Part shown: piece by piece, positions 21,570-22,028 of the stretch | Layout: the number at the start of each line of letters is the position of its first letter | How positions within the stretch are numbered: the stretch's first letter is position 1 | Notes under the pieces: generated by a model | What the model was told of the DNA's origin: nothing | Databases searched by the model: none | What the model saw: only the letters and a program-made list of their open reading frames with translations | Source: a virus | IMG/VR virus record: IMGVR_UViG_3300037483_001334 | DNA: 64,000 nucleotides | Strand: one strand, 5' to 3' | Program-made: the position numbers and the translations under genes

Positions 21570-21753
21570 TCAGGGCTTCCCTTCGCCGGCATCGTGAAGC
21601 AGTTGACGCGTCACGCCCGGAGAGACTTCAATGTGCCGTGGAACGGGCAGCCTGACGCCGGTCCGTGGGTTCCGATAGATCGTGTGCTTTGCGCCCTCTT
21701 CCTTGAAGACCGCCGAGGTCCACGAGCTTTCGGATCAACAGGCGACGATTCAC
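21570..21753 (-). pseudogene. hicA: hicA toxin, frameshifted
   Basis: The GTG at 21753 gives VNRRLLIRKLVDLGG in frame 0; the homologous continuation VFKEEGAKHTIYRNPRTGVRLPVPRHIEVSPGVTRQLLHDAGEGKP is in frame +1, with a single-nucleotide indel near 21708-21714; it aligns without gaps to HicA at 3553. Confidence 0.5.
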
Positions 21754-22028
21754 GCAGCAGCCAGCTTCGTGTGCTCAACGCGAACGCTCACGAAGGGCGG
21801 CTTCTCGCCGTCCTTGCGGTACGAAGCAAGCAGGTCATCGACTGCGGACACAAGGTTCGCCATGGCGGTGGCCCGCGTGCGGCCTTGGCTATACGCGCCG
21901 CGCAGGAACGGCGCGGTCGCGACCCACCAACCGCCCTCCTTGACGAGGACAATGTCGAAGGCGCGCGGTTGGCTCGTACGCGTATTTCTGCTCGTTCGGC
22001 GCATCGAAAAAGAGTGCGGGTCAGACAC
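21750..22028 (-). CDS. hicB: HicB-family antitoxin (second copy) with Arg-rich leader (MRRTSRNTRTSQPR)
   Basis: FDIVLVKEGGWWVATAPFLRGAYSQGRTRATAMANLVSAVDDLL. Confidence 0.7.
   Translation of the reverse strand: MSDPHSFSMRRTSRNTRTSQPRAFDIVLVKEGGWWVATAPFLRGAYSQGRTRATAMANLVSAVDDLLASYRKDGEKPPFVSVRVEHTKLAAA

Follow-up and report, generated by a model that had tools for sequence, protein, structure and literature searches.

A probably recent frameshift in hicA beside an intact hicB points to toxin-first decay of a class 2 hicBA cassette in a probable jumbo phage

The viral DNA stretch of 64,000 nucleotides (nt) recorded in IMG/VR as IMGVR_UViG_3300037483_001334, hereafter the window, carries two toxin-antitoxin loci of the hicBA type, locus 1 (hicB-1 and hicA-1) and locus 2 (hicB-2 and hicA-2). 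We found that the reading frame of the toxin gene hicA-2 is broken and that the antitoxin gene hicB-2 next to it is intact (Table 1). The explanation that we consider probable is that hicA-2 is a recent pseudogene in a decaying, accessory hicBA cassette of class 2, and that HicB-2 is still a folded, HicA-binding antitoxin that would act in trans. Under this hypothesis, the persisting HicB-2 would act on HicA-1 of the same genome and/or on HicA toxins of the host or of competing elements, and such action on related HicAs would explain why hicB outlives hicA.

Frame 0 of hicA-2 translates as MNRRLLIRKLVDLG and continues into an out-of-register tail up to a TGA stop, giving 41 amino acids (aa) in total, and the +1 frame from position 21710 reads VFKEEGAKHTIYRNPRTGVRLPVPRHIEVSPGVTRQLLHDAGEGKP up to the stop at 21572..21570. 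A tblastn search with HicA-1 retrieves the C-terminal part of hicA-2 (E = 1.8e-15, 67% identity). When the two frames are joined, the product scores 33.2 bits (E = 5.5e-8) with the Pfam HicA_toxin family (PF07927), whose cut-off of 27 it passes; HicA-1 itself scores 24.7 bits, just under the same cut-off. The joined HicA-2 aligns with HicA-1 at 60% identity and free of gaps, as had been stated for its two halves in an earlier note on this DNA.

The lesion was located by aligning the hicA DNA of locus 2 (MAFFT) with hicA-1, with the syntenic phage hicA genes of two relatives (L011 and L015) and with hicA of a Sandaracinaceae metagenome-assembled genome (MAG). A two-column gap falls in hicA-2 (GGCG--GTC) where the four intact homologues read GGCGCCGTG, GGCGCGGTC, GGCGCTGTC and GGCGCGACC, all of the form GGCGCNGTC, and a codon-level comparison agrees. 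The alignment shows that hicA-2 lost 2 nt from the codon of Ala15, with a net frame change of one base; the 1-nt frame change proposed in the earlier note is therefore right for the net effect and wrong for the lesion itself. The sole alternative is a 1-nt insertion, for which hicA-2 would have to be one codon shorter than every homologue. The deletion, which shifted the frame after codon 14, lies in a GCGCG-type microrepeat and plausibly arose by loss of one CG unit.

In a protein alignment of HicA-1, the joined HicA-2 and the HicAs of L011 and L003, the residues H24, N29, P30, R31, T32, P39, R40 and H41 are invariant, and the joined HicA-2 keeps them all. His24 and every other invariant residue lie downstream of the lesion, and the actual frame of hicA-2 stops short of His24 and of the beta-sheet. 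In the HicA toxins of E. coli and B. pseudomallei, His23/24 is the catalytic histidine in the beta-sheet region. A profile made from the four HicA sequences weakly matches one structure in the PDB (E = 0.15), T. thermophilus 1WHZ, which was deposited as a hypothetical protein and which we take to be HicA-type. The C-terminal frame of hicA-2 contains no restart codon (ATG, GTG or TTG) before its last 14 codons. The sequence thus supports the inactivation of hicA-2 that the earlier note had thought likely: the 41-aa product without His24 is the only one predicted, and neither a restart nor a slippery site offers another. Furthermore, hicA-2 is a genuine and probably recent pseudogene, recent because it has a single lesion and the frame downstream of it is intact. 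Locus 2 is accordingly composed of an antitoxin gene and a toxin pseudogene, and differs from a working type II pair, in which both genes are intact.

The evidence on the lesion comes from assembled contigs of one strain, and the case hangs on one 2-nt difference in GC-rich DNA. If this difference were a sequencing or assembly artefact, the true genome would have an intact hicA-2 and an ordinary functional hicBA pair. The 84-aa HicB-2 is also encoded on a Logan contig (SRR12684493, 2831 bp) and on a Joint Genome Institute (JGI) contig (3300037424, 1503 bp), both of which match the window from end to end (1.5-2.8 kb) at 100% identity, lesion included. An assembler artefact is disfavoured because the same lesion appears in three assemblies, which came from different pipelines; in addition, the site is no homopolymer, and public gene callers leave the hicA-2 stretch uncalled on both extra contigs. 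Collectively, these observations make an artefact quite improbable.

Both halves of hicA-2 are perfectly kept and a simple +1 shift suffices to join them, which would fit regulation by recoding, such as a programmed +1 frameshift, that supplies active HicA-2 in small amounts. However, the junction CUC GGC G GUC does not permit re-pairing of the P-site tRNA, has no rare or stop codon for stalling and no A/T run for transcriptional slippage, and all four homologues are single-frame at the lesion site. Programmed frameshifting was ruled out from this junction and, because no slippery or stalling feature is present, recoding in general is very unlikely, close to negligible.

We then turn to the surviving gene. 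hicB-2 is identical to a public gene call (P0001) that JGI names 'RNase H-like HicB family nuclease', and the pattern of its G+C content at third codon positions is of the coding type. Its TGA stop (21752..21750) overlaps the GTG start of hicA-2 at 21753 in the tetranucleotide GTGA, which at locus 1 likewise joins the stop of hicB-1 to the start of hicA-1. Public gene calls take the ATG start of hicB-2, and in an exact look-up the 84-aa ATG form was on record and the 92-aa form beginning at the upstream GTG had no record; the same look-up returned no record for HicB-1, whose translation could alternatively begin at a TTG at 3251. A terminator-like hairpin (GAGTG...CACTC, 22012..22030, minus strand) followed by TTTTT immediately precedes the hicB-2 ATG. 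Promoter and terminator scans of both loci returned no promoter, and hairpins at chance level only (2 against 1.4 expected).

HicB-2 scores 13.8 bits on Pfam UPF0150, and HicB-1 scores 22.8 bits on UPF0150 (PF21748) and 14.6 bits on HicB_lk_antitox, all under cut-offs of about 27. A HicB family profile nevertheless reaches 1164 database proteins, many of which are named HicB family antitoxin or carry PF15919, and in a 46-member alignment HicB-2 retains the 6 invariant and the 6 near-invariant positions. An AlphaFold2 model built with this alignment, with a predicted local distance difference test score (pLDDT) of 86, has strands at residues 19-23, 26-30 and 38-41 and a helix at 44-65, which together form a partial RNase H-like beta-beta-beta-alpha(-beta) toxin-binding fold. 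The top 17 Foldseek matches of the model are all HicB or HicB-like structures, and it superposes on HicB structures with a root-mean-square deviation of 1.7-2.5 Å over about 60 residues (1.7-2.1 Å for the best ones). The best matches in the PDB are TTHA0281 and the toxin-binding domains of the B. pseudomallei, E. coli and Y. pestis HicBs, and the HicB profile finds 2DSY at E = 6.5e-4 as well as the HicB entries 6G1C/6G1N. HicB-2 has, as modelled, a common core with TTHA0281 (2DSY), B. pseudomallei HicB (6G1C/6G26), E. coli HicB (6HPB) and Y. pestis HicB3 (4P78); unlike them it is without a C-terminal ribbon-helix-helix (RHH) or helix-turn-helix (HTH) domain and has an extra disordered, basic N-terminal arm, and its identity to them is 23-28%. 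No HTH or RHH Pfam match was found in the HicBs, the model consisting of the core, the N-terminal arm and a short C-terminal tail. HicB-2 therefore looks functional in sequence and model, and its 84-aa open reading frame (ORF), invariant residues and modelled fold agree with the earlier description of an intact HicB-2. Its putative binding to HicA is suggested by genomic linkage, namely the GTGA overlap between hicB and hicA in both loci and in relatives.

Class 2 hicBA loci are defined by a hicB that precedes a closely linked or overlapping hicA and encodes a small protein, of 63-103 codons, in which no DNA-binding domain is recognised (Gerdes 2024, mBio, PMC10865869); solitary hicB genes are on record, and the class is without experimental study (PMC10865869). 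Both loci of the window belong to class 2 because they have no DNA-binding domain, the order hicB to hicA and a 4-nt GTGA overlap, with HicBs of 84 and 89 aa. The resemblance to the published class (PMC10865869) extends to the overlap, for which translational coupling is suggested, and to a HicA of about 60 aa with a conserved His; the loci depart from it in that they occur twice in a probable jumbo phage, in that the toxin of locus 2 is frameshifted, and in the 14-15-residue Arg-rich leader of HicB. Locus 1 was also claimed earlier, at 3251-3729, to be an intact HicB and HicA pair with a GTGA overlap, and on sequence it is. HicB-1 and HicB-2 are 46-50% identical, the value varying with the alignment.

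Relatives of the window were found through a 971-aa protein (23904..26819): contigs of 258,975 and 297,749 bp, and an independent assembly of 297,555 bp. Ga0265318_10000009, Ga0334722_10000009 and ERZ27248239 k141_4574762 are the relatives in this size range of 258-298 kb. The gene order around locus 2 is conserved among them, with genes g18859 and g19476 on the plus strand, then a short minus-strand block made up of DUF192, a 69-aa gene and the hicBA slot, then plus-strand genes up to the gene of the 971-aa protein. The slot occupied by the cassette is found in four states, from an intact pair through the frameshift of the window and an almost complete deletion of the toxin gene to complete loss (Table 1). 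Other metagenomic members of the same HicB subfamily outside the window clade have intact pairs, and three unrelated loci show decay: an intact hicB lies beside a multiply frameshifted hicA in L005/L006 (370-600 and 641-870) and beside a 12-aa hicA stub in L007 (3230-3340), and in L019 (195-503, P0045) HicB is fused in frame to a HicA C-terminus. Read across these sequences, the pattern is one of toxin-first decay of an accessory class 2 hicBA cassette, with the antitoxin repeatedly outlasting the toxin. A scan of the genome contigs yielded just 7 loci, a number too small to estimate how often hicA decays.

Two further observations concern this slot. In the window, hicB-2 heads a minus-strand block (20255-22004), placed between plus-strand genes, that comprises the pseudo-hicA, a 69-aa gene, a DUF192 gene and genes of 69, 77 and 63 aa, and the content of the block differs among relatives. 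Furthermore, L012 and L021 are assemblies of the same 297-kb phage and share 99.99% identity along 18 kb. A 2-nt indel (TG) separates them precisely where the hicB stop meets the hicA stub (about 8075-8090 in L012, 10255-10270 in L021), and this indel alters the C-terminus of HicB (93 against 88 aa).

A role of HicB-2 as an orphan antitoxin against host HicA, of a kind already proposed for phages, is plausible from these sequences. Candidate targets in trans are HicA-1, encoded in the same genome and 60% identical to HicA-2, and the HicA of a Sandaracinaceae MAG, which is 51-57% identical to the phage HicAs. The L012 lineage, which keeps hicB after deletion of hicA, fits such a role, and selection is favoured because of this retention. 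On the other hand, plain toxin-first decay also fits because L008 lost the whole cassette, and the complete loss in L008, together with the low identity of the slot orthologues, favours dispensability or cassette turnover. The comparative data thus allow the orphan-antitoxin reading and plain decay alike, and do not separate selected retention from a relic.

Under the relic hypothesis, HicB-2 has no role: the toxin broke first, as survival of the carrier demands, and hicB-2 is awaiting loss. This would account for the absence of the cassette from L008 and for a slot that differs in every lineage examined; elsewhere in the subfamily, too, hicB often has a decayed hicA as its neighbour, and a single lesion in identical assemblies leaves no time for selection to show. 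It is less easily reconciled with the L012 lineage, where hicB is intact with all invariant residues despite a hicA that was deleted and replaced by about 1.3 kb, or with L005/L006 and L007, where hicB is intact beside a heavily degraded hicA, an asymmetry between the two genes that suggests retention beyond drift alone. We regard a neutral relic as possible, although we lean away from it.

Several points weigh against the explanation that we favour, of a pseudogene beside a retained HicB-2 that acts in trans. Cross-neutralisation between HicB and HicA at 50-60% identity is unpredictable from sequence. The slot HicB orthologues are only 47-51% identical, against 61-78% for the flanking proteins, so that exchange of the cassettes, in place of inheritance, is conceivable and weakens the picture of a single decay series, and the whole-cassette loss in L008 means that HicB is dispensable in this slot. 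The three assemblies with the lesion are identical throughout and represent one strain, possibly from related samples, rather than independent lineages. Finally, neither a promoter nor a Shine-Dalgarno sequence is recognisable at hicB-2.

A toxin pseudogene beside its antitoxin is, as such, routine and mostly a matter of ordinary, known gene decay. The modest value of the present case is in the comparative series, in which one slot in one clade of giant phages passes from intact pair to frameshift, toxin deletion and complete loss; this offers a concrete, testable route to free-standing phage antitoxins, which have so far been proposed as counter-defence mostly from gene presence. HicA-1, a repaired HicA-2 and both HicBs also form a compact set for cross-neutralisation, given that class 2 hicBA is experimentally unstudied (PMC10865869).

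Established and proposed phage antitoxins provide a frame for this series. Dmd of T4 is established as an antitoxin that a phage encodes on its own (PMC3874152), and free-standing antitoxins of the large 'moraphages' have been proposed as counter-defence (PMC12619734). Like these, HicB-2 is a phage antitoxin without a working cognate toxin and with a proposed role against host toxin-antitoxin defences. Unlike Dmd, which is unrelated to HicB and whose activity was shown experimentally, HicB-2 is known here from sequence, and unlike both Dmd and the moraphage antitoxins its origin from a full pair is still visible, in the pseudogene and in the intact pair of relatives.

The Arg-rich leader of HicB-2, to which the earlier note had drawn attention, is real and not special to HicB. 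At least 8 otherwise unrelated proteins of the window, all within its first 27 kb, have at their N-terminus a peptide rich in Arg, Ser and Thr (M[KR]RTSR..., in forms such as MKRTSR..., MAKRTSRRN..., MPRRRTSRRRASRR..., MSKRHSRSRRN... and MAKKRHSKRAKRNSRR...), and orthologues in relatives, at 70-77% identity, keep this tag. Its bearers include the two HicBs (the leader of HicB-1 being MKRTSRNSRRRASRQ), a BrnT toxin in a relative, a ParB-like protein, the 971-aa protein and several small proteins. Between copies, including those of HicB-1 and HicB-2, the peptide is alike and the codons are different; because the codons differ, conservation acts on the tag peptide. In addition, an 871-aa protein (3824..6439, plus strand) has about 25 tandem copies of the RRNSRRRASRRP type in its N-terminal third, with DNA periods of 27, 36 and 129 nt. 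Short basic N-terminal arms are, however, also common in bacterial HicBs of the same subfamily, where 20 of 78 have at least 5 K/R, and the idea of the leader as a phage-specific addition to HicB is weakened by these bacterial homologues.

The tag could be an arm that binds nucleic acid, or it could serve in sorting or packaging. In the second case it would send HicB-2 and the other bearers to a common destination (the virion, for packaging and injection, or else a phage compartment or nucleic acid), and HicB-2 would have its anti-HicA job without hicA-2. The conserved peptide with differing codons, its presence on at least 8 window proteins and in orthologues, its position ahead of a BrnT toxin domain in a relative (L021), its disorder in the HicB-2 model and the adjacent 871-aa protein, made up largely of about 25 copies of the motif, all speak for such sorting. 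Against it, no virion or structural genes are recognised in the window, the tag has no protease site, a literature search on packaging tags of Arg-rich type in jumbo phages turned up no precedent, and the basic arms of bacterial HicBs suggest that the HicB leader may belong to the family at large, for instance as an arm that binds nucleic acid in place of the missing DNA-binding domain. We rate a common destination as rather unlikely. It is similarly doubtful that this jumbo-phage clade uses the tag, which is at most about 25 residues long, as a modular signal for sorting or packaging and HicB-2 as a pre-delivered anti-HicA effector, which would hence persist after the death of hicA-2. If the tag were a true sorting signal it would outweigh the pseudogene in importance, and it is the item most worth follow-up.

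The internal proteins of T4, such as IPI*, bear capsid-targeting sequences, a short N-terminal peptide common to proteins with no other relationship, of which at least one counters host defences. By analogy only, the clade tag is likewise an N-terminal peptide common to unrelated proteins, at least one of them a putative anti-defence factor; the T4 sequence differs in that it is not Arg-rich and is cleaved by the prohead protease, packaging or cleavage of the clade tag being hypothetical.

Table 1. Positions of the hicBA features in the window, of the slot states in relatives and of tagged gene starts
Feature	Location	Strand	Description and basis
hicB-2	21750..22004	-	intact antitoxin gene, ATG start (MRRTSRN...), 84 aa; ORF list and sequence
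possible 8-codon 5' extension of hicB-2	22005..22028	-	alternative GTG start at 22028; inside the hairpin and T-run abutting the ATG
HicB-2 Arg-rich N-terminal leader (MRRTSRNTRTSQPR)	21963..22004	-	predicted disordered, mean pLDDT 52 for residues 1-10
hicA-2 pseudogene, GTG to original TGA	21570..21753	-	three-frame translation, tblastn, Pfam on joined product
hicA-2 codons 1-14, original frame (VNRRLLIRKLVDLG)	21712..21753	-	translation and MAFFT
lesion in hicA-2: lone G remaining of the Ala15 codon	21711..21711	-	GGC GCN GTC to GGC G GTC, two bases lost
hicA-2 residues 16-61, +1 frame, with conserved His24	21570..21710	-	TGA at 21572..21570; tblastn, 100% identity over 21710..21573
premature TGA ending the 41-aa frame (codon 42)	21628..21630	-	ORF 21628..21753
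hicB-1	3287..3556	+	intact paralogue, ATG start (MKRTSRN...), 89 aa; same as JGI gene call P0007
hicA-1	3553..3729	+	intact paralogue, 58 aa; GTGA overlap with hicB-1
slot state 1	L010/L011 (258,975-bp contig) and five more contigs from five samples		hicB and intact hicA
slot state 2	window		hicB and frameshifted hicA
slot state 3	L012/L021/L022 (297.6-kb contigs)		hicB, three hicA codons (GTG AAC CGG, GTGA overlap kept), about 1.3 kb of unrelated DNA
slot state 4	L008		no cassette, about 75 bp between flanking genes
tagged gene starts, window	3287, 6469, 12744, 13470, 22004(-), 23140, 23904, 26821
tagged gene starts, relatives	L008 5597, 5890; L011 2181, 4898, 5751, 9271(-), 10001; L012 248, 1206, 8356(-), 9995, 16406

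The window has a G+C content of 60-70% and is mostly dark matter. Among its proteins are a Ro60/TROVE protein, an RlaP nucleotidyltransferase, an SPFH protein and an HNH endonuclease; several match PHROG families, and family searches recognised no capsid, terminase or other virion or structural genes in it. The clade probably consists of uncultured jumbo phages, 'phage' itself being a term that we infer. Megablast of the 19-25 kb region of the window against INPHARED phages gave no match, and tblastn against phages gave none for HicB-2 and one weak match for HicA-2. No relatives emerged from IMG/VR when it was scanned with the 359-aa neighbour or with HicB-2, and the joined HicA-2 produced no candidates in a word-index search. 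Sequence searches of the neighbours and of the tag-bearing proteins against Pfam, PHROGs, PADLOC, NCBIfam and the PDB found almost nothing.

The nearest named homologues of HicB and HicA come from Myxococcota MAGs (Sandaracinaceae and Polyangiaceae), which carry hicBA of the same subfamily and architecture, the Sandaracinaceae MAG being the source of the HicA compared above at 51-57% identity (GCA_020633195.1, with this hicA near 763,029-763,211 of JACKEC010000015.1). Myxococcota of these two families are possibly the hosts.

Some further genes were also noted. The repeats of the 871-aa protein resemble protamines or SR proteins, and this protein and the next one (6469-7080, plus strand, 203 aa, with an Arg-rich N-terminus) end alike, in RGYAGGVFAR(H/Q)LF, with no family match. 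In the tagged 253-aa protein (23140-23901, plus strand), Cys-rich motifs occupy the N-terminal part, and the C-terminal part contains a DGAHR motif that by eye recalls ParB/sulfiredoxin-type nuclease domains, with no Pfam or PHROG match. In L021, a BrnT toxin homologue (1604-1951, minus strand) has a 23-aa tagged extension (MRKKRTSRKN...) ahead of its canonical start (YEWDPQK...) and is followed by an HTH_31 protein (1287-1607, minus strand) that is likely its antitoxin; the window is without a counterpart. A 217-aa ORF of the window (27176-27829, plus strand) is 89% identical to an L021 protein with a weak Pfam match to AbiEii, a nucleotidyltransferase toxin, and may be another gene derived from a toxin-antitoxin system.

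The window also has an array of 30 tRNA genes found by ARAGORN at 34854-49833 (plus strand), including four tRNA-Arg species, and four further Rfam tRNA matches at 35719, 36460, 38574 and 39982. The Ro60/TROVE protein, which also has a vWA domain, is encoded at 47133-48941 (plus strand), and within 8 nt of it there is a match to Rfam RF01656 (48949-49012, plus strand), at 40.3 bits for a gathering score of 38. The family comprises small RNAs of nematodes, and we take it to be related to Y RNAs; if so, the two genes may form a Ro60 and Y-RNA-like pair in a phage.

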